A stretch of 64,000 bases of DNA from Candidatus Saccharicenans sp. (GCA_030018265.1 JASEFX010000007.1:1122-65121), one strand, 5' to 3'. Shown: positions 6,171-34,560, counted from the first letter of the stretch. The notes: generated by a model from the sequence alone, not told the origin. Translations and numbers: made by a program.

Positions 6171-9059
6171 ATGAAATCGTTGAGTGAAATCGCCAGAAAT
6201 TCTTTCTTGAACGAAGCCCAGTTAGCCAAAATTGAGGAAATTATTCTGACAGACGGTTTCTTCTGCCCCGAGACCGTGCGCGAGGAGATAGAAACCTTCT
6301 GCACCGACCTCGGCTTGAGCGAGCAGTATTTTGAGTCAACCCCGCTCGAGACCATCGCCCATCACATAGAGGCGCTGGGCGCGGCTGAAATCCTGGCAAA
6401 ATTAAGAGGAGAGAAAGAGGTAAGAATCGATTTTGCCACCGAGCTTGAAGATGAAGCCTTCTACCTGGTTGAAGACAGTCATTATCGGGCCATCGAGATT
6501 GAAGAGAGAATAGAGAAGAAATATCCTGGCTTCCGGATTCAATCCTATCGTTCCAGCAGGAAACTGCGCGGGATTGAACATCTCCGGTGGTATGTAGTCT
6601 GCCGCCCGCAATTTGCGAGCGGTGCGGTTTCCCCGGAAGAGACCGACCTCAAGAAGATCGCCGATAAAGATTTTCTGTCTTCGATTCCGAAAGAAACATT
6701 CGCCAGATACCAGGAGCTGATGAAAAAAGCTAAGGACCCGGAAAGGCCGTACATCGAGGCCAACCATGTGGCCAAAGACAAAAGTCTGCGGATTTCAGTC
6801 GTCTGCAAGAGCGATTCGATACCGAGATTTTTCATCAACGTTTCCGACGTGTTAAATTCACATGGCCTGGTTTCCAGAAGGAAATATGTTGAACATTTTG
6901 CCAACGGTCGCACCATCCTGACCTTCTACGTGGACGATATTACCGATCAGGAAAAGCTGGATGACCTGCTGGCGGACATAAGCCTGATTTATGTGATTCC
7001 CGAGAGCCCGCTGTCGAAGCTTTTCCGCGAGGGCAAGCTCACTGCTCAGGAAATGCTGTTCGGAGTCTCTGCCTGGAGCTTCTGCCACCAGTTCCTGAGC
7101 AGCTTCAACGAGGAATATCTTAAACTTTCTCAGGCGCTCAAGGATAACCCTGAGCTTCTCGGACTGCTCAGGGAGCTGAAAATCCGGCTGGCCAAGGAAA
7201 CTTTTACTGAGGATCGAGTCTGGGACGCTCTGATTAACAACTATCAGATAGTCAAAGAGCTATTCAAAATATTCGACCAGCGTTTTAACCCCGCGGTCAA
7301 AAACCATAATGTGGATGAAGCTTTCGAGAACATCAGCAAAACCATCACCCGCGAGGTTCAGGTGGAGGCTGACCGGGTCGTGCTGCTGACTATAATCAGC
7401 TTCATCAAATCAATTCTGCGCACGAACTTTTACAAGAAAGAAAAAGTTTCCATCGCTTACATGTACAATCCGGAATTCCTGAACAAAGTTGATTATCCGG
7501 TCACTCCTTTTGGTGTTTTTCACGTTATAGGTCGCGAGCTGCGCGGTTTCCACGTACGATTCCGCGACATCGCCCGCGGAGGCATCAGAATCGTCAGGTC
7601 GATCAACTATCAGACCTATCTGAACAATTCCGATTTCATCTTCGACGAAAATTACAACCTGGCACTCACCCAGCAGCGCAAGAATAAAGACCTGGCTGAA
7701 GGCGGGTCAAAAGGCACGATCCTCCTCCGCTGGGGTTTTACGGACAAAATGTCCGTAGCTTTTAAGAAGTACATCGACGGACTGCTCGACCTGATGATGC
7801 CCGACAAGTCGATCGTGGATTATTACGGCAAAGAAGTTATCCTGTTCCTCGGTCCGGATGAATGGACAGCGGATTTGATGGAATGGGCAGCCGATAGAGC
7901 CCGCTTCCGCGGCTACAAATTCTGGAAAGCTTTTACTACCGGAAAACCGCTCAGCATGGGCGGCATTCCCCACGACCGCTACGGGATGACCACCAATTCG
8001 GTGCATGAGTATGTGCTCTGCGCGCTGAAAAAGCTCGGGCTTAAGGAAGAGAATGTGACCAAGGTTATGACCGGCGGTCCGGACGGCGACCTGGGTTCGA
8101 ACGAAATCCTGATTTCCAGGGACAAAATTCTGGCTGTCATCGACGGTTCGGGTGTTCTTTACGACCCTGAAGGGATCAACCGCAAAGAGCTGGTGCGTCT
8201 GGCCAGGGCCAGGAAGATGGTGGAAAACTTCAACCGTTCACTCCTTTCTCCCCAGGGCTTTCTGGTGACCATTAAGGACAGGGACGTGGTACTGCCGGAC
8301 GGAGAAAAAGTGGAAAACGGACTGGAGTTCAGAAACACCTTCCATCTGCATCCGAAGTTCAGAGCCGATATCTTCGTGCCCTGCGGCGGTCGCCCGGCAT
8401 CGGTCAACATCAATAACTGGAAGACATGGGTGGATGAGGACGGCAAGCCCAGGTTCAAGGTCATCGTGGAAGGAGCCAATCTCTTCCTGACTCAGGAAGC
8501 CAGACTCCGCCTTGAAGAGAAGGGCGCGATTATTTACAAGGATGCTTCCGCCAATAAGGGCGGCGTTACTTCTTCCTCGCTGGAAGTGCTGGCAAGCATG
8601 GTGATGACCGATAAGGAATGGGATGAGCTGATGTGCGTCAAAAACGGACAGGAATCGGATTTCAGAAAGCAGTACATTGCTGAAATCATCGAAACTATAA
8701 AAGAGAACGCCCGACTCGAGTTCGAAATAATCTGGAAAGAGCACGAAAGAACCGGAATGCCCAGGGCTGTGCTGACTGACCTGATAAGCGAAAAAATCAA
8801 TCAGATCAAGGATGCTGTTTACAACTCCAGCCTGTTTAACGACCGAGCTCTGTTGAAGAAAGTGATCGAAATCGGCGTGCCCCAATCGCTTCTGAACCTG
8901 GTCGGCCTTAACCGCTTCCTCAACCGGCTGCCCGAGAACTATCTGCGAGCGCTGTTTGCTTCCCGTCTGGCCAATCGTTATGTCTACAGATTCGGTCTGC
9001 AGGCGAATGAAGTGGATTTTTATCAGTTTGTTGAGAGCATCAAAAAGGAAGAGAAGTAA
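6171..9059 (+). CDS. Large NAD-specific glutamate dehydrogenase (fungal/protist GDH2-like)
   Basis: GFHVRFRDIARGGIRIV, KNKDLAEGGSKG, LGPDE, GGIPHDRYGMTT, GGPDGDLGSNEI, VEGANLF, DASANKGGVTSSS. Confidence 0.9.
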   Translation: MKSLSEIARNSFLNEAQLAKIEEIILTDGFFCPETVREEIETFCTDLGLSEQYFESTPLETIAHHIEALGAAEILAKLRGEKEVRIDFATELEDEAFYLVEDSHYRAIEIEERIEKKYPGFRIQSYRSSRKLRGIEHLRWYVVCRPQFASGAVSPEETDLKKIADKDFLSSIPKETFARYQELMKKAKDPERPYIEANHVAKDKSLRISVVCKSDSIPRFFINVSDVLNSHGLVSRRKYVEHFANGRTILTFYVDDITDQEKLDDLLADISLIYVIPESPLSKLFREGKLTAQEMLFGVSAWSFCHQFLSSFNEEYLKLSQALKDNPELLGLLRELKIRLAKETFTEDRVWDALINNYQIVKELFKIFDQRFNPAVKNHNVDEAFENISKTITREVQVEADRVVLLTIISFIKSILRTNFYKKEKVSIAYMYNPEFLNKVDYPVTPFGVFHVIGRELRGFHVRFRDIARGGIRIVRSINYQTYLNNSDFIFDENYNLALTQQRKNKDLAEGGSKGTILLRWGFTDKMSVAFKKYIDGLLDLMMPDKSIVDYYGKEVILFLGPDEWTADLMEWAADRARFRGYKFWKAFTTGKPLSMGGIPHDRYGMTTNSVHEYVLCALKKLGLKEENVTKVMTGGPDGDLGSNEILISRDKILAVIDGSGVLYDPEGINRKELVRLARARKMVENFNRSLLSPQGFLVTIKDRDVVLPDGEKVENGLEFRNTFHLHPKFRADIFVPCGGRPASVNINNWKTWVDEDGKPRFKVIVEGANLFLTQEARLRLEEKGAIIYKDASANKGGVTSSSLEVLASMVMTDKEWDELMCVKNGQESDFRKQYIAEIIETIKENARLEFEIIWKEHERTGMPRAVLTDLISEKINQIKDAVYNSSLFNDRALLKKVIEIGVPQSLLNLVGLNRFLNRLPENYLRALFASRLANRYVYRFGLQANEVDFYQFVESIKKEEK

Positions 9060-9062
9060 AAT

Positions 9063-9824
9063 TTAACTTATTTCGCCCGTAATGTAGGCCCGGGTTCTGG
9101 GGTCCCTGGGAGAAATCAGGACCTCGGAAGCCGGGCCGAATTCTATAAGCTCTCCAAAATAAAGGAAGGCGACGTAGTCTGCGAGCCTTCTTGCCTGACG
9201 GAGGATGTGTGTAACCAGAACGATAGTGTAATTTTGCTTGAGGTTAAGAAGCTGCTTTTCAACGTTCCGGCTCGATTGAGGGTCCAGAGCCGAAGTGGGT
9301 TCGTCACCGAGGATCACTTCGGGTTCAACGGCCAGCCCGCGGGCCAGACATAGCCTCTGCTGCTGACCGATGGAAAGACGGCTGGCCGGTTCAGCCAGCC
9401 GGTTCCTGACTTCCTCCCAGAGACCGGCCATCTTCAGGTATTTCTCCACCAGTTCATCCAGCTCTTTTCTTTTTCTGATTCCGAGCAATTTCGGCCCGAA
9501 GGCCACGTTATCGTATATTGACATCGGGAGGACCTGGGGCTTTTGCGAAAGAAGGCCCATCCGCTTGCGAATGGCGGTTACGTCGATGTCTTCCTGATAG
9601 ATATCCTGATCATCCAGTATTACTTTCCCTTCAACCCGGACCCCATCCTGTTCCTCCAGCAGGCGGTTGAGACTTTTAAGAAAGGTGGTTTTGCCGCATC
9701 CTGACGGCCCGATTATCACGGTGATGCTGTTGTCAGGAATTACCAGCGAGATGTTTTTAAGCACCTGATTTTTACCATAGAAAACATTCAGGTTTTCCAC
9801 TCTCAGGCGACCCGGTCGCGTCAT
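9063..9824 (-). CDS. pstB: PstB-family ABC ATPase (operon 1, divergent)
   Basis: GPSGCGKTT, LSIGQQQRLCLARGLAVEPE, DEPTSALDP. Confidence 0.88.
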   Translation of the reverse strand: MTRPGRLRVENLNVFYGKNQVLKNISLVIPDNSITVIIGPSGCGKTTFLKSLNRLLEEQDGVRVEGKVILDDQDIYQEDIDVTAIRKRMGLLSQKPQVLPMSIYDNVAFGPKLLGIRKRKELDELVEKYLKMAGLWEEVRNRLAEPASRLSIGQQQRLCLARGLAVEPEVILGDEPTSALDPQSSRNVEKQLLNLKQNYTIVLVTHILRQARRLADYVAFLYFGELIEFGPASEVLISPRDPRTRAYITGEIS

Positions 9825-9836
9825 CGCTTTGCTCCC

Positions 9837-10733
9837 TTAATGTATTTTATGCTGACTGAATTTTCGGCTGAGGCCACGGGAAGCCAGGCTTATGAGCAGG
9901 ATTAAGATGGTCAGAACGGCTGCAGCCGCGTAGGCTCTTTGCTGCACTTCCGGATAGGGAGAGTTCAGCTGAAAGAAAATGGCCAGAGGCAGGGTGGCCA
10001 CCGGCTGAAAAAGCGAAGTGGTGATGCGGTCAGTATAGCCGGCCGTAAACAGGACGGCGGCCGCGTCGCCCAGTCCTCGCCCGAAAGCCATCAGGGTGGC
10101 GGTCAGAAGACCGGGGAAGGCCTGGCGCAGGACTACCTTGATGGCAGTCTGCCAGCGGCTGGCTCCGAGTGAGTAAGTGGCCTCTTTCAGTTCAGCGGGA
10201 ACCATGTTGATCGTTTCGTCCAGCGCCCGGCTGAGGATCGGCAGTTCCACCATGGCTACCGTGATCATTCCCGCCAGAAGAGAGGCTCTCAGATGAAAGG
10301 CGAGCATAATCAGAAAGCCGAAGGCGCCGTAGACGATCGAGGGTATCCCCCAGAGAACGTCGAGGACAAACCTGATCGCTTCTGCCAGCGGTGAGTGCCG
10401 GCGAAGATAGCTGTTGAGAAAAACCACAGCCGGAAGAGAGATGAACAGGGCGACCACGGTTGCACCCAGGGTCAGCTGCAAAGATCCAGCGATGGCATTG
10501 AGGATGCCGCCTTCGTGGCCCAGATAATAGCCGCTTCCTGGCGTTCGGATGATCAGACTCAGTCTCAGCGCGGGAAGACTCTTGAAGAGAATGGTGGCAA
10601 GTATCAGTATCAGGCTGAAGAGAACCAGCCCTGCGCATATTGATATTATTATTTTGAACAAAAGTTCTGCCCGCCGCCGGCGGCGAAGATGTCCGGTCTT
10701 TGGAATCAGGCTGGCCGGGCAGCTGTTATTCAT
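9837..10733 (-). CDS. pstA: PstA-family ABC permease (operon 1)
   Basis: GIPSIVYGAFG, EAA-loop ELKEATYSLGASRWQT; operon position. Confidence 0.85.
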   Translation of the reverse strand: MNNSCPASLIPKTGHLRRRRRAELLFKIIISICAGLVLFSLILILATILFKSLPALRLSLIIRTPGSGYYLGHEGGILNAIAGSLQLTLGATVVALFISLPAVVFLNSYLRRHSPLAEAIRFVLDVLWGIPSIVYGAFGFLIMLAFHLRASLLAGMITVAMVELPILSRALDETINMVPAELKEATYSLGASRWQTAIKVVLRQAFPGLLTATLMAFGRGLGDAAAVLFTAGYTDRITTSLFQPVATLPLAIFFQLNSPYPEVQQRAYAAAAVLTILILLISLASRGLSRKFSQHKIH

Positions 10734-11626
10734 CCGAACCTCCGGCTGATTTTTACTAAATACCAGCGAGCGATCAGACTGAACCCGATCACAATAACAA
10801 GCAATATCAGCGCAGCCAGATTGAGCGCCGCTTCATACCCGGGAATCGACATCATTTCTCCGTAGTTGTTGGCCAGAAGCGCCGGGAGCGGGTAGGCTGG
10901 AGAAAATAGCGAGCGAGGAATTTCCGGCACATTCCCGACCACCATCAGCACGGCGATGGTTTCGCCGAACGCCCTGGCCAGCCCGAGGACGCAGGCGGCC
11001 ATGATGCCCGGGAAACATTTTTTCAGTACAACATATCTGACCACTTCCAGACGTGTGGCGCCGAGGGAAAGAGCGGCTTCCTTCAGCTCGAGGGGCACAG
11101 AACTCATCACCTCAACCGAAACGTTGATGATGGTCGGCAGGATCATTACAGCCAGTACTATTCCGGCGGCCAGAACGCTGTAACCGGAGCTTTCGCGGCC
11201 AACTGTCAGCGCCTGTAACTTTCTCACGGCCGGGACCACCAGAAGCACTCCCCACATCCCGTAAATCACCGAGGGAAGTCCGGCCAGAAGGTCAAGCACC
11301 GGCCGGAAAATCTTTTGCAGACCTGAAGGCGCGTATTCTGATAGATAAATGGAACTCAATAGTCCGACCGGCACCGCCAGAAAAAAAGCCGTGATGGTCA
11401 CCCAGATCGTCCCGGCTATAAACGGCAGAAGGCCGAAGTTTCCCCGGCCAGGCTGCCATGTGGAAGAAAAGAACAGAGTGCTCAAAGATTTAAAAGAAAT
11501 AAAAGGCAGAGCCTTCCCGGAAAGCGCCAGGAAAATAGCGACCGCCAGAAGAAGCGGCAAAAAGGCGAAGAGTGCCGTGACCAGCGCCGGCCACAGGTCT
11601 TTCTGACTTAAATTTTTCAGGCTCAT
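10730..11626 (-). CDS. pstC: PstC-family ABC permease (operon 1)
   Basis: LLAGLPSVIYGMWG, EAALSLGAT, RAFGETIAVLMVVGN. Confidence 0.87.
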   Translation of the reverse strand: MSLKNLSQKDLWPALVTALFAFLPLLLAVAIFLALSGKALPFISFKSLSTLFFSSTWQPGRGNFGLLPFIAGTIWVTITAFFLAVPVGLLSSIYLSEYAPSGLQKIFRPVLDLLAGLPSVIYGMWGVLLVVPAVRKLQALTVGRESSGYSVLAAGIVLAVMILPTIINVSVEVMSSVPLELKEAALSLGATRLEVVRYVVLKKCFPGIMAACVLGLARAFGETIAVLMVVGNVPEIPRSLFSPAYPLPALLANNYGEMMSIPGYEAALNLAALILLVIVIGFSLIARWYLVKISRRFG

Positions 11627-12642
11627 CTTTTTCTGAGCTCCTGGATTTTCTGGCGTTGCTGTTTGAGAATCTCGTCATCTGGCGTCAAATATCCAGCCTG
11701 CTCTACCAGACTCTGCCCGCGGGTTAAAACCCATTCGAGGAAAACGAGCACCGCTTCTTTCTGCAGGTTCATTTTAACCACCAGAAAAAGGTCGCGGGCG
11801 GGAGGCGAAGGATAAAGTCCATTTTTGATGGCGGCGGTCAGAGTTGTCCGGTCCTGGTAAAAATTTTCTTCCGGGGAAATCTCACCGTCAGAGTTCAGGT
11901 CCAGCGGAATTATGGCCAGCCCTTCGTGGGGTTTCAGCGTGCGCGGATTGTAGGCAAAATTAAGGTTGTTAAAACCGATCCCGAGCGGGTCGCGACGGAC
12001 AGCCTCCGCCAGACCCGGGTCTCCAAAGATGGCCACCCCTTTCAGGTCTTCCTGATGAGCTCCAAGGAAAGCAGCCCAGGTTTCGGCCGCGCCGCAGGCG
12101 TCCGAACGGATGTAAGTTCGGATGGGAGTTTTAGGAACGGAAGCGAAAAGCTCTTCCCAGAAGCGAATCTTTCCTTCTATAAAAATAGCTCTGAGTTCTT
12201 TACTGGTTATGCCTCTTTCGAGAATTGATCCGAGAAACGGATTTTTTGAGTTGACTGTGCCAACGACGGCGTCCTTAGCGACGACCAGCGGCCAGGCGCC
12301 GCGGCTGATTTCCTCCGGGTGCACGTCTCGAGAAAGCATGCCGATATCCACCAGCCCCGACAGAACGTCCGCCATTCCTTTGCCTGCTCCTCCTGCCTGC
12401 AGGTCTATTTTTACGCCGGGGTATTCTTGCTGAAATACTTCTGCCCAGCGGGCCGCCAGCGGATAGAGCGCCCAGGCGCCGGAGATGCTGATATTTGCGG
12501 TGAGTTTTGAATTTTGAAATTCTTTCGCTGGCGTTAAAACTCTGACTGCAAGCAGGGCGGTAAATGACATAAGAAAAATTAACAGGAAAAAACATACGGT
12601 TTTTTTTCTGCTCGCAATTGTATTTCTTTTCTCTGCGATCAT
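11623..12642 (-). CDS. PstS-like periplasmic oxyanion-binding protein (non-canonical ligand site)
   Basis: PBP_like_2-type layout (ISISGAWALYPL, GGAGKG, LSRD, RSDACGAAETW, YPSPPARDLF); N-terminal TM/signal; directly upstream of pstCAB. Confidence 0.8.
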   Translation of the reverse strand: MIAEKRNTIASRKKTVCFFLLIFLMSFTALLAVRVLTPAKEFQNSKLTANISISGAWALYPLAARWAEVFQQEYPGVKIDLQAGGAGKGMADVLSGLVDIGMLSRDVHPEEISRGAWPLVVAKDAVVGTVNSKNPFLGSILERGITSKELRAIFIEGKIRFWEELFASVPKTPIRTYIRSDACGAAETWAAFLGAHQEDLKGVAIFGDPGLAEAVRRDPLGIGFNNLNFAYNPRTLKPHEGLAIIPLDLNSDGEISPEENFYQDRTTLTAAIKNGLYPSPPARDLFLVVKMNLQKEAVLVFLEWVLTRGQSLVEQAGYLTPDDEILKQQRQKIQELRKR

Positions 12643-12707
12643 TCCTCAGACCTCAAAGGGATGTTCCTTTTTTGAAGCCATCGGCTCCACCATAATCTTT
12701 CTGGCGG

Positions 12708-13715
12708 TTAGAAGCCGACCTGCAGCTGGAGAAGAAACGCGTTGTAATCGGGTCCATTTTCCACCCGATGGAATTCCACGTTAGCCTGCGCTTTAGACTT
12801 CCCGCTCAAAAACCAGTTCGTCCCGGCGGTGAAGGTTGTTGCGCTGTTTCCGGGGATATTGTGGTTGTCATTCAGGTAATCGAGCCTCAGGACCAGCTGA
12901 TATTTTTTCTTAATCAGGTCGGCCGCTCCGAGAAGGTACCAGCCTGATTTTTCGGCCGTGTGGTCTTCTGCCATTATGTATTCAGCCTGAAGATAGAAGG
13001 GAGCGCGAAGCCAGGTCAGCTCAAACCCGTATCTGTTCCTTTTAAGATCCATGGCAGCGGCCGTGTCGAATCGCCGGCCATTGTAAATAGAGAAACCAAA
13101 AGAGAAACCCTCTATCGGATTAAAGGTAATTCTGACGGCCAGGTCTTTGTGATCGTTATCGTCCTTTTTGTTGGCGCCGGTTCCGTTGACCAGACCGATA
13201 GAATAATGCACGGAAGAATAGCTTCCGTAAACCACCGCACCGATATCCCGGCCGGCGGTGCCTGTATCACGCCCGGGCGCCAGTTTTTCCACCACCTGAG
13301 AGCGATTAATAGTCAGCAACTGCCCGGCCGAGGTATTGTTTTCGAGGCTGAAAGGAACAAGAAACTGTCCGAGGCGAAAATTAATACCCCGGATTATGTT
13401 CACTTCCGCCATCGCGTCAAGAAGAGCCGGGGAGCGGGTAAAATCCACCTGGAGCTTGAAGTGGAGGTTTTTGATGATAGAAGCCCCCATAGAGAGACGC
13501 GCGCGCCTCACAGAAAAGGTGTCGGCGGAATCTTTACGACCGCTGAAAAGAATCTGGGTATAGCCGGAAAGTGAAACCGGCAGGGAACTCGTTATCGCAG
13601 GGGAAGATGATTCTGAATCTACGGGTGTAGGGTAACCGGAAACGATTGGAGCGAAACAGGCTAAAAAAGGAGTGATCAAAACACAGGCAAAAATGCGCTG
13701 GCAGGCTTTTTTCAT
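12708..13715 (-). CDS. OprO/OprP-like anion-selective porin
   Basis: Signal peptide, FSVRRARL, LLDAMAEV, GQFLVPFSLE, GRDIG, NWFL; ends LQVGF (outer-membrane barrel terminal Phe). Confidence 0.82.
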   Translation of the reverse strand: MKKACQRIFACVLITPFLACFAPIVSGYPTPVDSESSSPAITSSLPVSLSGYTQILFSGRKDSADTFSVRRARLSMGASIIKNLHFKLQVDFTRSPALLDAMAEVNIIRGINFRLGQFLVPFSLENNTSAGQLLTINRSQVVEKLAPGRDTGTAGRDIGAVVYGSYSSVHYSIGLVNGTGANKKDDNDHKDLAVRITFNPIEGFSFGFSIYNGRRFDTAAAMDLKRNRYGFELTWLRAPFYLQAEYIMAEDHTAEKSGWYLLGAADLIKKKYQLVLRLDYLNDNHNIPGNSATTFTAGTNWFLSGKSKAQANVEFHRVENGPDYNAFLLQLQVGF

Positions 13716-14161
13716 TTTATGCCTCCACCGGACTGGTTCTTTTTAATCTCCACATGTTTTCTTACCACATCCTCAAAGGTGGTCTTTTCCAGATGACTGG
13801 CTACCATATCCCTGACTTCTTTCCACAGCGATCTGAGACCGCAGCGGTTTTCAAACGGGCAGGGTTCATGGTCGATGACGCTCACGCAATTGATTGGAGC
13901 CAGTGGCCCGTCGAGCACCCTGATCACTTCAGCCACGCTGATTTCGGCCGGAGGTCGCGCCAGATAATAACCTCCTGATGGTCCTTTCTTGCTCTTGACG
14001 TATCCGGCTCGTTTGAGAGAGAGGAGAATCTGTTCAAGAAACGGCCGTGGGATGGCCTGAGACAGCGAGATTATTTTTATCGGAACAGGCCCCTGTCCGT
14101 AGCGTAGAGAAAGTTCCAGCATCGCCCGGCTGGCATATTCTCCTCGCGTCGAAAGCCTCAT
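13712..14161 (-). CDS. Rrf2-family transcriptional regulator (IscR/CymR-like, three Cys)
   Basis: MRLSTRGEYA, FLEQILLSLKRAGYVKSKKGPSGGYYLARPP, GPLAPINCVS...C...C; overlaps the porin start (ATGA). Confidence 0.92.
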   Translation of the reverse strand: MRLSTRGEYASRAMLELSLRYGQGPVPIKIISLSQAIPRPFLEQILLSLKRAGYVKSKKGPSGGYYLARPPAEISVAEVIRVLDGPLAPINCVSVIDHEPCPFENRCGLRSLWKEVRDMVASHLEKTTFEDVVRKHVEIKKNQSGGGIK

Positions 14162-14174
14162 AATTCGACAGTTA

Positions 14175-14230
14175 ATAGTTGATTAATTCTATCAACTTTA
14201 TCATATATTTAACTCGTGCAGGATTGTCAA
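14175..14230 (-). promoter_or_regulatory. Promoter plus palindromic Rrf2-type operator
   Basis: Minus strand TTGACA (14230-14225), 17 nt, TATATG; inverted repeat AGTTGAT-N7-ATCAACT (14177-14197) between the -10 and the ATG. Confidence 0.65.
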
Positions 14231-29120: not shown

Positions 29121-29819
29121 TTAAGCCTTTACTTCCTCGTATTTATAACCAACTCCCCTGACGCTGTGGATGAAAGCTGCCAGAGGACCGAGTTTTTCTC
29201 TGAGGTGTCTGATGTGGACGTCAACCGTGCGGTGAATTACCACCTTTTCCTGACCCCACAGGCGGTCCAGGATCTCGTCTCTGGTAAATACTCTTCCGGG
29301 CCGGGAGGTGAGAAGTTCAAGAATCCTGAATTCGCTAAGGGTGAGTTCGACCGGCTTTCCCATGACCAGAACTTCAAATTTTTCCGGTCTGATGATGAGC
29401 TTGCCTCCGGCCAGATTTTTTTCGGAAGTTTCCGGGGTGAGCGATTTGTCCCGGCGGCGGAGAACAGCTTTGATCCGGGCTTCAAGTTCGCGCAGGGAAA
29501 AAGGTTTGGTCACATAATCGTCGGCGCCCATTTCCAGTCCGGTTACCCGGTCGGCTTCCTGTGATCTGGCGGTAAGCATGATGATGGGAATGTCTGCCCG
29601 TTCCGGCTGGCTTTTTAACCAGCGGCAGATTTCCAGGCCGTCGCTTCCAGGCAACATCAGGTCGAGAAGAATAAGGTCGGGCCGGTGACGCTCGAGATAC
29701 CTGAAGAAAGATCCTGGATTACTGAAAGCCTCGACTCTGTAGCCGGCCCTGGATAAATTCGTCTGGACCAGTTTCAGTATGTCCTCTTCGTCATCCAGGA
29801 TGGCAATGGTTCTGGACAT
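29121..29819 (-). CDS. phoB: OmpR/PhoB-family response regulator
   Basis: Receiver domain (ILDDE, LDLMLP, GADDYVTKPFS) plus winged helix (RTVDVHIRHLREKL, SVRGVGY); downstream of pst operon 2. Confidence 0.8.
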   Translation of the reverse strand: MSRTIAILDDEEDILKLVQTNLSRAGYRVEAFSNPGSFFRYLERHRPDLILLDLMLPGSDGLEICRWLKSQPERADIPIIMLTARSQEADRVTGLEMGADDYVTKPFSLRELEARIKAVLRRRDKSLTPETSEKNLAGGKLIIRPEKFEVLVMGKPVELTLSEFRILELLTSRPGRVFTRDEILDRLWGQEKVVIHRTVDVHIRHLREKLGPLAAFIHSVRGVGYKYEEVKA

Positions 29820-29910
29820 TTCTTGGTTCCTTTATATTCTAATATTTTTTTCTCCGGGTGTTCAAACTAAAATTCCGCGCAATCCGAATAATAACCGTAA
29901 CAGTTCCGGC

Positions 29911-30696
<786 letters not shown>

Positions 30697-30698
30697 GG

Positions 30699-31583
30699 TC
30701 AATGTCTCCACTTCTTTCTCAATCTGGATCGAATCAGGATAGCTCCGAGGTTGAACAGAATGATAAAGGCAATCAACACCAGGGCTGTGCCGTAAGCCAG
30801 CTCTCTGGCCCTGTCGATGGCGTGATGCTGGGTGGCCATTATGTAGAGATGGTAGGGAAGCGCCATAAACTGGTCTTTAAGCGACTGCGGGATGTAAGGA
30901 AGGTAGAAAGCTGCTCCGGTGAACATAATAGGCGCGGTCTCTCCGGCCGCCCTGGCCAGGCCCAGCACCGCTCCGGTGAGCATTCCAGGAATGGCATACG
31001 GTAGTACGTTTGTCCGGATCATCTGCCATCTGGTAGCGCCGAGGGCCAGCGCCCCTTCCCGGTAGGCGTCCGGAACGGATTTCAGAGCTTCCTCGCTGGC
31101 GGTAATGGTCCACGGAAGTGTCAGCAGTCCGAGGGTCAGCCCGGCTGAGAGCACGGAAGTTCCAAATTTCATGATGTTAACAAAAAGTATCACCCCGAAA
31201 AGACCATATACTATTGAAGGGACGCCGGCTAAATTGCGGATGGATAACCTTATAAGACGGGTCAAACGTCCGGCTCTGGCATACTCGTTCAGGTAGATGG
31301 CCGCGGCCATCCCCAGGGGAACAGCAAAAATGGCTGTGATCAGCGTTACCAGAAATGTTCCCACAATCGCCGGGAAGATTCCGCCCTCGGTCATTCCGCG
31401 GCGCGGTGCCTGGCTCAGAAACTCCCAGGAGATAACCTTATATCCCTGGCTGCTGATGTCGTAGAAAAAATAGAGCAGGATGAAAAGAACGGAATAAACA
31501 GCGATTCTCAGCATAAAGAAGCCGATGAATTCTGCCAGCTGGCTCCCGCGCCATTCGGAAACTTTCTTAACCGATCTGGTCAT
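30699..31583 (-). CDS. pstA: Phosphate ABC permease PstA (operon 2)
   Basis: [34 protein letters not shown]. Confidence 0.95.
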
Positions 31584-32485
31584 TGGAGTTTTGTCCTCTG
31601 TTTTTCCAGGATGATGTCTGCCGTCAGGTTCACGCTGAAAGCCAGAATGAACAGCACCAGCCCCAGGGCAAAAAGCGCATAGTAGTGGGTGGTGTAATAA
31701 GGAACCTCGCCCAGCTCGATGGCAATGGTGGCGGTGAGAGTTCTTACGGATTGAAGAAAGCCACGAGGGAAAGCTCTGGCGTTTCCGGTGGCCATGAGCA
31801 CGGTCATGGTCTCACCGACAGCCCTTCCGAGACCGAGCATCAGAGAAGCGACAATTCCCGAGATAGCAGCCGGGATTTTTACCCTTATTAAAGTCTGCCA
31901 GCGATTGGCTCCGAGAGCCAGGGAAGCTTCGGTGTAACTCAGAGGTACGGCTCTCAGCGAATCTTCAGAAATGCTGATGATGGTCGGAAGCGCCATTATA
32001 GCCAGGAGGATACTCCCGTTGAGGGCAGTCAGACCATGGTTGAGCTTGAATATTGTGGAGATCAACGGACCGGTTATGGTTATGCCGATGAACCCGACGA
32101 CCACCGAAGGTATTGCAGCCAGCAGTTCTATCACCGGTTTTAAGATTTCCCTCACCCGCGGGCTGGCCAAATCGGAAAGGTAGGCGGCCACGGCCACTCC
32201 CAGCGGAAAGGCAATTAAAAGCGCTCCAGTGGTTACCATGATCGAACTGGCGATCATCGCCAGAATCCCGTATTCGGGCTTTTCCGGCGAAGTCGGGTCC
32301 CAGCGGGTTGAGGTCAGAAATTCCTTAAGACGGATTTCTTTGAAAGCCGGAACGGAAGTGTAAAGAAGAAGGGCAAATATGCCCATTAGAGCTATGATGG
32401 CCAGCATCCCGCTCGTCTGAAACAGAGTTTTTATCAGGCTTTCCTTGATGTCTCCCAGGATGCCCTTCTTCTTTACCGAGGTCAT
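31580..32485 (-). CDS. pstC: Phosphate ABC permease PstC (operon 2)
   Basis: ELLAAIPSVVVG, GRAVGETMTVLMATGN, ALFALGLVLF. Confidence 0.95.
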   Translation of the reverse strand: MTSVKKKGILGDIKESLIKTLFQTSGMLAIIALMGIFALLLYTSVPAFKEIRLKEFLTSTRWDPTSPEKPEYGILAMIASSIMVTTGALLIAFPLGVAVAAYLSDLASPRVREILKPVIELLAAIPSVVVGFIGITITGPLISTIFKLNHGLTALNGSILLAIMALPTIISISEDSLRAVPLSYTEASLALGANRWQTLIRVKIPAAISGIVASLMLGLGRAVGETMTVLMATGNARAFPRGFLQSVRTLTATIAIELGEVPYYTTHYYALFALGLVLFILAFSVNLTADIILEKQRTKLQ

Positions 32486-32508
32486 TGTTTATCTTCCTTA
32501 AATGTCGA

Positions 32509-33444
32509 TTATCTTAAATTCTTTTCGTTCTGCTCCATCAGGTCTTTTCCCACCTTGAAGAAGCCTTCCTTCTCGACGATCGACTGGCCTTCGGGGCTGA
32601 GCACGAAGCGGATAAAGTCAGCCACAGCCGGTGACGGTTTTCCGTTGGTTGACTGATAAAGCGGTCTGGAAATAGCGTATCTGGCTGAATAGACGGCTTC
32701 CTTATCCAGGGGGGAATAGGCCGGGGCATTTTCATCTTTTTTGATTTTCAGCACTTTGATGCCTTTGCGGACCTCACCCTTTTTGTCATACAGGTAGCCC
32801 ACTCCCACGTAGCCAATTCCGGCCGCGTCCTGAGTGACAGCTTCAATAATCTGAGCGTTTCCGTTCATTTCTTTGACATCCGGGGAATAATTTTTGTTGT
32901 TAAGGACATGTTCCTGCAGAAAAGCATAGGTGCCTGAATTTGACTGGCGCCCGTAAAGAGAGATTTTCATCTCGGGACCGCCGACCGCCTTCCAGTTTTT
33001 AATTTCGCCGCGGAAAATCGCCCCCACCTGTTCCATGGTCAGAGTCTCCACCGCGTTCTTATCGTTGACTATTATGCTGAGAGCGTCCACGGCTATGGCA
33101 AAAATTCTCGGTCTGACACCTTTTTCATAGGCCAGGTCGAGCTCTCTGTCTTTCCATTCTCTGGAATGGTTGGCTACGTCACAGGTGCCGTTGATGAGCG
33201 CGGTAATGCCCGTTCCGGAACCGCCGCCGAGAACGGCGATGGCTGTGCCCGGCTTTTTACTCATGTATTCTTCGGCCAGGATCTGGACGAGGTTGACCAT
33301 CGTATCGGAGCCTTTGATTTGAATCATTTTCTTCTGGGCCGAAACCGTGGTCGGTAGAAGCAGGCCAAGGGTTGTAAGCAGGATCGCTCCGAAAAGCATT
33401 CCCCCCGCTAATTTCTTGATTCGAGTGAAAATTTTTGTGTTCAT
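32509..33444 (-). CDS. pstS: Phosphate-binding protein PstS (canonical)
   Basis: IKGSDTMVNL, GGGSGTGI, GRQSNSGTY, YAISRPLY; GGAGG RBS before ATG 33444. Confidence 0.93.
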   Translation of the reverse strand: MNTKIFTRIKKLAGGMLFGAILLTTLGLLLPTTVSAQKKMIQIKGSDTMVNLVQILAEEYMSKKPGTAIAVLGGGSGTGITALINGTCDVANHSREWKDRELDLAYEKGVRPRIFAIAVDALSIIVNDKNAVETLTMEQVGAIFRGEIKNWKAVGGPEMKISLYGRQSNSGTYAFLQEHVLNNKNYSPDVKEMNGNAQIIEAVTQDAAGIGYVGVGYLYDKKGEVRKGIKVLKIKKDENAPAYSPLDKEAVYSARYAISRPLYQSTNGKPSPAVADFIRFVLSPEGQSIVEKEGFFKVGKDLMEQNEKNLR

Positions 33445-33465
33445 TTTTTCCTCCTTCATGTTAAT

Positions 33466-34560
33466 TTAAAAGCTCATCAGAAAGGTCAGGTTAAAAATCA
33501 CATCATTTTTCTTGAGAGGGGCTTTATAATCGTAAACCCAGACGTTCGGCTGTAATCTGAAACTGCTGTGAAGCGGAGACCAGTCGAGACCGGCTATGAT
33601 GAGTGATATCTCGTCGCCTGACAGAAGATTGTTAGGTTCGTACCGGTCAAACCGGGCGAAGAGATTCAATTTTTCCTTTATAAGTTGATAGCGCCCGAAG
33701 ACCGAAAGACCGGAGCGGTCGTAACGCTGGCCATCTGTCAGGTTTTTATCGTTGCGATAGATGAAGTATTCGGTTCCTATGGTCAAACCGGGGATGAATT
33801 CAAGGTAAAGGTCTCCCTTATAGGTAAAAGCGCTGGCTCCGACGTCCTGCTTTTCATAGTCGACATAACCAACGACAGACACACCGGCCACCGGAATCAA
33901 CTGCAGAAAAGAGCTGAGTTTTTTATGTTTGTCTTTTTCTGGCCTGGTATAACCTTCTCCGCTGGAAAGCATGATTCCATAGCGCAGCTGACGCACAATT
34001 TTCCCGCTGAGGCTTATTCCCAGGTCGGCGCTGGTGGCGTCAATATCTTTGCCTGTTATATCTTTATAGCCGTCAAGCAGAGTCTTGGCCACGCTGCGGT
34101 AACCCCAGCGGTCCTCGGCCAGCTTGAAGGTTATGGTGTCCGCCATCCCGATTTTGATGTCGGCATCGGGGATCAGTTTGTTGATCTGAAGATACATATG
34201 CTTCAGATAAGGGCGAAACTTGTCGTCAGGTTTGCCGGAAGCATCGGTCGCTTTCAAATTATCTCCGTCGAGAGTCAGGCGAAAGCTGATCATGTCGTTT
34301 ATTTTGTTGTCGTAGCGAAAGTATACCCGGCGGAACTGCATGAAGTTATTCTTGAAGTTCGGGTTGTCGGGCGGGGACGTGGTGATCGGACCATTTTTAG
34401 AAAGATAAAAGGTGTAATCAAAAAACACCGTGCCTGAAATTTTTTGCTGGGCAGAAGCTGACCTCAGCAGCATGGTGGTGGCCAGCAGGACGGTCAGACA
34501 CAGAAAGAAAAGTCGGCGAGAACGGTAACCCGGTTTCTCTGATTTTCTCTTTGCTAACAT
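33466..34560 (-). CDS. Porin-like outer-membrane protein heading pst operon 2
   Basis: Signal peptide, FQFRRVY-like MQFRRVYF, YLKHMYL, amphipathic strands, terminal Phe. Confidence 0.72.
   Translation of the reverse strand: MLAKRKSEKPGYRSRRLFFLCLTVLLATTMLLRSASAQQKISGTVFFDYTFYLSKNGPITTSPPDNPNFKNNFMQFRRVYFRYDNKINDMISFRLTLDGDNLKATDASGKPDDKFRPYLKHMYLQINKLIPDADIKIGMADTITFKLAEDRWGYRSVAKTLLDGYKDITGKDIDATSADLGISLSGKIVRQLRYGIMLSSGEGYTRPEKDKHKKLSSFLQLIPVAGVSVVGYVDYEKQDVGASAFTYKGDLYLEFIPGLTIGTEYFIYRNDKNLTDGQRYDRSGLSVFGRYQLIKEKLNLFARFDRYEPNNLLSGDEISLIIAGLDWSPLHSSFRLQPNVWVYDYKAPLKKNDVIFNLTFLMSF

Follow-up and report, generated by a model that had tools for sequence, protein, structure and literature searches.

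A Pst-type ATP-binding cassette (ABC) operon occupies positions 9063 to 14230 of a 64,000-nucleotide stretch of DNA from Candidatus Saccharicenans sp. (GCA_030018265.1 JASEFX010000007.1:1122-65121), the whole of which is called here the window. Judged from its sequence and that of its relatives, this operon probably encodes a Pst-derived importer for sulfate, possibly for thiosulfate too, and not for phosphate, under the control of a CymR/IscR-like repressor. We also lean, by a little, towards regarding its family as a sixth, unrecognised class of prokaryotic sulfate transporter, which would have arisen from Pst by coordinated change of four subunits, is usually paired with an Rrf2 regulator and is widespread in anaerobes. 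The evidence observed in this analysis is of four kinds, namely gene content, separation of the family, residue changes and genomic linkage.

The six genes are on the minus strand, in the order rrf2, porin, PstS-like binding protein, pstC, pstA and pstB, with short or overlapping junctions. The first gene, rrf2 (14161-13712), encodes an Rrf2-family regulator of 149 amino acids with three cysteines spaced as C-x8-C-x5-C. It overlaps by 4 bp the gene of a predicted outer-membrane anion porin of the Porin_O_P family (13715-12708, 335 amino acids). Next comes the binding protein (12642-11623, 339 amino acids), which has a PstS fold and an altered pocket (GAWALYP, GGAGKG, SRD and RSDACGAA). A PstC-type permease (11626-10730) and a PstA-type permease (10733-9837), each of 298 amino acids, are followed by a PstB-type ATPase (9824-9063, 253 amino acids) with the signature LSIGQQQ. 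Neither phoU nor phoB is found in the flanks of the operon. A first-pass annotation of this DNA had described a packed rrf2-porin-pstSCAB operon with a palindrome and no adjacent phoU or phoB, and gene order, overlap and flanks all match that description.

In terms of sequence family, the binding protein stands apart from PstS. It scores 106 with the PstS model TIGR02136 (cut-off 206.6), 64.9 with TIGR00975 (cut-off 205) and 25.7 with NF008171 (cut-off 339), and matches the Pfam family PBP_like_2 with 92.7 bits. A family profile run on 301 Acidobacteriota genomes gave a bimodal distribution of scores, with 26 genomes above 300 bits and canonical PstS proteins below 130 bits. When 1.84 billion representatives were scanned, the matches with E<=1e-30 came to 168 clusters at 50% identity, and those with E<=1e-10 to 857. 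The closest relatives come from Candidatus Saccharicenans and Aminicenantes metagenome-assembled genomes. A motif-seeded locus scan, built from a 14-sequence family alignment and covering one genome per species, confirmed at least 587 relatives among the matches listed, with carriers among these matches in Aminicenantes, Bacteroidales, Clostridia, Spirochaetota, Omnitrophota, Planctomycetota, Kiritimatiellia, Anaerolineae, Ignavibacteriales and others. Every source name displayed for the family proteins in the database is a phosphate-transport or generic solute-binding one, in agreement with the earlier suggestion that such systems would be misannotated as phosphate uptake. The AlphaFold2 model of the binding protein has a predicted local distance difference test score (pLDDT) of 93.6, and Foldseek matched it best to PstS proteins throughout, with identities of 17-24%. 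This protein is likely the specificity determinant of the transporter.

Gene neighbourhoods were compared by tblastn over 104 family loci, 10 of them from relatives of the window, 16 from the Acidobacteriota profile search and 78 from the motif-seeded species scan; many of these loci end at contig ends. Alongside the binding protein, PstC/PstA-type genes are present in 94 loci and PstB in 83. PhoU is adjacent in none of the 104, and OmpR-family regulators like the PhoB-like protein of the window occur in 9. In contrast, an Rrf2 gene is adjacent in 53 loci, and among the 85 with at least 2.5 kb of upstream sequence it lies within 2.5 kb upstream in 47. Furthermore, cysH, cysD, cysN, sat or cysC is adjacent in 13 loci, from about six lineages. 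The first-pass annotation had set rrf2, cys and sat neighbours against phoU and phoBR, and it is the former that are favoured.

The arrangements of these 13 loci vary. Eight are from Bacteroidales, where cysH-cysD-cysN come immediately after pstB. The locus from Ignavibacteriales (L097) reads binding protein-pstC-pstA-pstB-cysH-cysD-cysN-sulfite reductase (NIR_SIR), and the one from Delongbacteria has cysD, cysN and cysC upstream. In the remaining three, from Phycisphaerae, Planctomycetota and UBP1, sat is found directly after pstB. The binding proteins of all 13 share the pocket signature with the window protein. Among 112 same-strand operon partners of the family, PAPS_reduct (17) and GTP_EFTU/CysN (9) are the most common Pfam families, with APS_kinase found twice and ATP-sulfurylase once. 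A homologue of the window porin adjoins the binding-protein gene in 35 of the 104 loci, and Alginate_exp-type porins make up another seven operon partners.

Some variations of this architecture were found. A LuxR-type response regulator precedes the operon in some Bacteroidales (L095, L103, L113, L129 and L138), replacing Rrf2, and HisKA_3 histidine kinases are among the operon partners. Three of these loci (L103, L113 and L138) have the operon followed by an Alginate_exp-type porin, replacing the O/P porin.

As for the pocket, the family profile was aligned to E. coli PstS by sequence and not by superposition, and the first pocket loop was re-registered by hand, on our own judgement, from a conserved Trp anchor. 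We take the phosphate ligands of E. coli PstS to be T10, S38, D56, R135, S139, G140 and T141. In the family, T10 is replaced by W/F57, S38 by A86, D56 by S104, S139 by C183 and T141 by A185. Three positions are kept, namely R135 (R179), D137 (D181) and G140 (G184). The motifs G-A-[W/F]-A-L-Y-P, G-G-A-G-K-G, S-R-[E/D] and R-S-D-A-C-G-A-A are near-uniform over the 104 loci, the first and last of them having served to pick most of these loci, and C183 is present in 100.

The first-pass annotation held that the binding protein had lost its Ser/Thr/Asp ligands. This stands for the hydroxyls of T10, S38, S139 and T141, all of which are replaced. For Asp it is half right: the equivalent of D137 is kept as D181, and the change of D56 to S104 makes no difference from the window's own canonical short PstS, which also has Ser at that position. 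The D56 position was rejected as a discriminating site for this reason. The net change would be that four donor-and-acceptor hydroxyls are gone and the donor groups stay. From what distinguishes PstS from sulfate-binding proteins, a donor-only pocket fits an anion that is fully ionised and does not fit protonated phosphate, so that the family pocket appears suited to the former.

The permeases and the ATPase also have changes that run through the family. The PstA motif GETA becomes GDAA (E224D in 65/65 and T225A in 62/65; RGLGDAAA in the window), PstC has G236S in 70/75 and L239F in 63/75, and 65 of 66 family PstB proteins have the signature LS[IVLM]GQQQ. In the window, this PstB reads LSIGQQQ and VTHILRQ against LSGGQQQ and VTHNMQQ in the canonical copy. 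The PstB and PstA deviations had been quoted correctly in the first-pass annotation, and they hold family-wide. PstB falls narrowly under the cut-off of TIGR00972 (332.2 bits against 343.2). It is 55-67% identical to family PstB proteins of other phyla, and these are 47-52% identical to the canonical PstB of the window. The porin matches PF07396 with 78.8 bits (cut-off 20.9), its best stretch covering profile positions 20-166.

Upstream of rrf2, a putative promoter on the minus strand (14202..14230) is composed of TTGACA (14230-14225), a 17-nt spacer and TATATG (14207-14202). The blocks TTGACA and TA.ATGATA are kept upstream of rrf2 in the Aminicenantes relatives. The rrf2 promoter was missed by a consensus promoter scanner, since this accepts only T as the sixth base of the -10 hexamer. 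A candidate palindromic operator of 25 bp (14175..14199), with 8-nt arms and a 9-nt spacer, ATAGTTGA-N9-TCAACT(T)T, comes right after the -10 element, 14 nt before rrf2 begins. Its arms are conserved upstream of rrf2 in the Aminicenantes relatives, and in a search of the 2.37-Mb genome no other site matched the 16 arm positions with at most 1 mismatch. Given this single good copy, the Rrf2 protein looks like a local regulator.

The Rrf2 domain (PF02082) of this protein scores 133.5 bits (cut-off 30). With 105 against the CymR model (cut-off 195) and 99.9 against the IscR model (cut-off 207.55), the protein is a member of neither equivalog. The nearest solved chains are 4cic (1e-29), B. subtilis CymR 2y75 (2.5e-23) and IscR (about 1e-16); of these, CymR is a repressor of cysteine metabolism. 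The three Cys of the window protein align with Ser positions in 4cic, which is presumably a Cys-to-Ser variant of IscR. The Cys triad is retained in 37 of 42 Rrf2 neighbours of family loci and absent in 5, so the pairing persists with a cluster-free regulator, like CymR. In these five (L074, L084, L102, L114 and L120, from Spirochaetota, Omnitrophota, Kiritimatiellia and Planctomycetota) all three Cys are gone. We infer that the likeliest logic would be autorepression by Rrf2 at the palindrome, relieved by shortage of sulfur or of iron-sulfur (Fe-S) clusters.

The source genome (2.37 Mb, 90.6% complete) has a cluster for sulfate activation on contig C72:54734-58847, with Sat (382 amino acids), a type I phosphodiesterase/nucleotide pyrophosphatase-like protein (460 amino acids), an adenosine 5'-phosphosulfate (APS) kinase and an NAD-dependent epimerase. 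No SulP, CysT/W or DASS carrier was found in this genome at its 90.6% completeness. Among 52 Acidobacteriota genomes, CysT/W is above cut-off in none of the 26 with the family and in 5 of the 26 without it, and strong SulP matches are found in 3 of 26 and 5 of 26, respectively, a weak separation. The complementarity between the family and the known sulfate carriers in this phylum is weak at best. In the 10 genomes with linked cys genes, the completeness of which was not gauged, CysT is above cut-off in none and SulP is absent from six.

Other anions appear to be provided for elsewhere in the genome. A canonical pst operon lies within the window at 29121-34560, with PstS at 239.7 (cut-off 206.6), PstC at 289.6, PstA at 289.5 and PstB at 405.4. 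The best match of its response regulator is PhoB, at 237 bits against a cut-off of 296, and repeated TTAAC words are found upstream of 34560. The first-pass annotation had reported just such a second, canonical operon with PhoB; it is present, and its regulator is PhoB-like. Another canonical pst system, on contig C39, has two pstB copies and a PhoU-like gene. A Tup-like ABC system on contig C27:17661-21597 consists of a PBP_like_2 binding protein, a permease of 223 amino acids and an ATPase of 367 amino acids, and the open reading frames (ORFs) adjoining it look like moeA and moaA from their N-termini. Uptake of phosphate and of tungstate/molybdate is therefore already covered.

The importer could work as follows, where substrate, repression and signal are what we infer. 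The O/P-type porin would pass the anion across the outer membrane, and the membrane-anchored PstS-fold protein would bind it. The binding pocket would use backbone amides, Arg179 paired with Asp181, Ser104-Arg105, the family-specific Lys88, the aromatic residue 57 and the near-invariant Cys183; the hydroxyl groups with which PstS holds on to protonated phosphate are missing from it. The PstC/PstA-type channel, with the two Pst channel arginines still present, would then conduct the anion, and the PstB-type ATPase would power the transport. Expression may come from a single promoter, with Rrf2, the product of the first gene, repressing it via the 25-bp palindrome that overlies the start site. 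Repression would be lifted on sulfur shortage, sensed by an Fe-S cluster on the three Cys or by a CymR-like partner. In the source genome, imported sulfate would go through Sat and APS kinase to APS and 3'-phosphoadenosine 5'-phosphosulfate (PAPS).

Several findings weigh against a sulfate importer, and they are given here with the rival explanations that they would favour. It is decidedly unlikely that this is a third, divergent Pst system which still imports phosphate, with a different affinity or regulation. Such a system would explain the PstS fold and the fact that the close solved structures of the binding protein are all phosphate binders. It would also explain why PstC (TIGR02138, 260.3 bits, cut-off 196.45) and PstA (TIGR00974, 204.7 bits, cut-off 193.45) pass the equivalog cut-offs, why the porin is from the phosphate-selective O/P family, and why R135, D137 and G140 are retained in the pocket. 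The channel arginines are retained as well: the equivalent of PstA Arg220 is R in 65/65 family proteins, and that of PstC Arg237 is R in 72/75 and K in 3. In the accessible part of the E. coli cryo-electron microscopy (cryo-EM) study, these arginines are tied to phosphate specificity (PMC12976172). Since they are conserved in the family too, they were rejected as a discriminating feature; they would mean that there is still an anion path, and speak neither for nor against sulfate. On the other side, the four hydroxyl ligands are replaced family-wide, the binding protein is at half the PstS cut-off, PhoU adjoins 0 of 104 loci against 13 for cys/sat, and two canonical pst systems are already encoded in this genome, of which the first has a PhoB-like regulator and the second PhoU.

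A different oxyanion of sulfur, thiosulfate or sulfite above all, whose recognition would involve the near-invariant Cys of the pocket, is an unlikely substrate but one with points in its favour. Cys183 replaces PstS Ser139 in 100 of 104 loci, and the Rrf2 regulator is related to sulfur and Fe-S regulators. Furthermore, CysH/CysD-type genes and the NIR_SIR sulfite reductase, which are needed for sulfate assimilation, are absent from the source genome and from five other carriers, two of which are single-sequence chromosome records of 3.2 and 4.3 Mb. It follows that in Aminicenantes sulfate would feed APS/PAPS chemistry and not cysteine, barring another route, and the C72 cluster suggests a supply of PAPS for sulfation, or for a sulfo-sugar or lipid, instead of cysteine synthesis. 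However, the linked enzymes CysDN, Sat, CysC and CysH act on sulfate, APS and PAPS and not on thiosulfate, and the 25 most common partner families include no rhodanese, CysM or Sox, with one PALP protein. Very improbable, to our mind, is another fully ionised tetrahedral oxyanion, be it molybdate, tungstate, selenate or arsenate. A pocket in which most donors are amide or guanidinium groups would accommodate any non-protonated oxyanion, and CysDN and Sat can activate selenate and molybdate analogues as well. Yet no moa, mod, ars or selenium genes are among the 25 most common operon-partner families, and it is the Tup-like ABC system that directly adjoins molybdopterin genes on C27.

The remaining points against sulfate concern the sample and the genome. 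The 104 loci are mutually related, and two pocket motifs served to choose most of them. The cys link is found in just 13 of them, 8 from Bacteroidales. Sat is present in 19 of 26 family-positive and 20 of 26 family-negative Acidobacteriota, and, being equally common with and without the family, was dropped as supporting evidence. The next-best operator-like sites in the genome-wide search have 2 or 3 mismatches and none is at the Sat-CysC cluster, so a wider Rrf2 regulon is not demonstrated. Lastly, sulfate could also enter through the products of a single PiT gene and a single TSUP gene of the source genome. A sulfate importer remains our preferred reading. The first-pass annotation had proposed a non-phosphate oxyanion importer, and this is supported, with sulfate favoured from the linked cys/sat genes and PhoU in 0 of 104 loci. 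From its list of candidate anions sulfate is preferred, and tungstate, like molybdate, is disfavoured by the missing moa/mod linkage among the partner families and by the separate Tup-like system.

The operon is flanked by a large NAD-glutamate dehydrogenase-like ORF, a DUF1573 protein and a nucleoside transporter. The first of these, with 962 amino acids (window 6171-9059, plus strand), is convergent with pstB, and its length and sequence point to an NAD-specific glutamate dehydrogenase. A homologous ORF of 960-965 amino acids is found on the opposite strand directly after pstB in 13 related loci, mostly of Aminicenantes (including L002-L008 and L062-L064). The canonical pst operon of the window is headed by a protein of 364 amino acids (33466-34560, minus strand) with no Pfam or NCBIfam match. 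Weak homologues of it (~25% identity) come directly after permease-less orphan family binding proteins in three loci (L058, L118 and L124). The match of the sole PiT (PHO4) gene of the genome, on contig C29:8271-9165, has one in-frame TGA, which could be a frameshift, a sequencing error or a boundary between two ORFs.

Sulfur assimilation begins with the uptake of sulfate. If the proposed function is true, the family would fill a transport gap in many anaerobes, those in which CysDN or Sat is present and SulT/SulP missing. The class would extend over anaerobic Bacteroidota, Acidobacteriota (Aminicenantes), Planctomycetota, Spirochaetota, Clostridia and other phyla, usually with the Rrf2 partner as its own sulfur or Fe-S sensor. 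It would also correct a systematic misannotation of the family as phosphate transporters. Since the family is labelled pstSCAB in databases, a demand for sulfur would then lie behind some of the "phosphate-stress" signals of anoxic metagenomes and metatranscriptomes. Counts of pstS are widely used as a phosphorus-limitation marker, and the misannotation therefore touches their use. Furthermore, the family would be a natural case in which few pocket substitutions, with matching changes in permease and ATPase, turned a phosphate-specific system into one for sulfate, and would help the understanding and engineering of anion selectivity.

No description of a Pst-type sulfate importer or of an Rrf2-pst pairing was found in the full-text literature, subscription journals and supplements being outside the scope of this search. 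A 2018 review counts, in its accessible part, five families of sulfate transporters, SulT, SulP, CysP/PiT, DASS and CysZ, none of them Pst-derived, and the word "Pst" is absent from its text (PMC5840216).

The closest known system is PstSCAB of E. coli (cryo-EM structures 9k3s/9k3x; accessible part of PMC12976172), with which the family shares the four-component architecture, the gene order, the PstS fold, the nearest PstC/PstA/PstB families and the conserved equivalents of PstA Arg220 and PstC Arg237. It differs in a binding protein below the PstS cut-offs that has lost the T10, S38, S139 and T141 hydroxyls, in the changes of PstA GETA to GDAA and of PstB LSGGQ to LS[IVLM]GQ, and in its links to Rrf2 and cys/sat and not to PhoU/PhoBR. 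A precedent for the recruitment of a phosphate-transporter lineage for sulfate is B. subtilis CysP, described in the accessible part of PMC5840216 as a sulfate permease of the PiT phosphate-transporter family encoded with sulfate-assimilation genes. In contrast to the present system, CysP is a secondary carrier, not an ABC transporter, and is unrelated in sequence.

As for the regulator, the likeness to CymR (B. subtilis, S. aureus) and IscR lies in the Rrf2 fold, the nearest solved relatives, the 25-bp palindromic operator seen here and the sulfur/Fe-S themes. The window protein differs from both in scoring below the two equivalog cut-offs and in appearing local, with its single good operator copy, and from CymR in its C-x8-C-x5-C triad, which CymR lacks in the alignment.

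Finally, SulT (Sbp/CysP-CysTWA, TCDB 3.A.1.6) has the job that is proposed here, a binding-protein-dependent, ATP-driven sulfate uptake feeding CysDN/Sat. Sbp binds sulfate through donor groups only. There is no family-level homology between the two systems: the window permeases score 25-53 bits against the CysT/CysW models (cut-offs 240-442), with 37-53 bits against those for CysT (cut-off 246), and the window binding protein is a PBP_like_2 protein with no sulfate-binding-protein family among its matches. In one family locus (L125), two tandem binding-protein genes precede one pstC-pstA-pstB set, a pair that recalls Sbp and CysP sharing one SulT permease.

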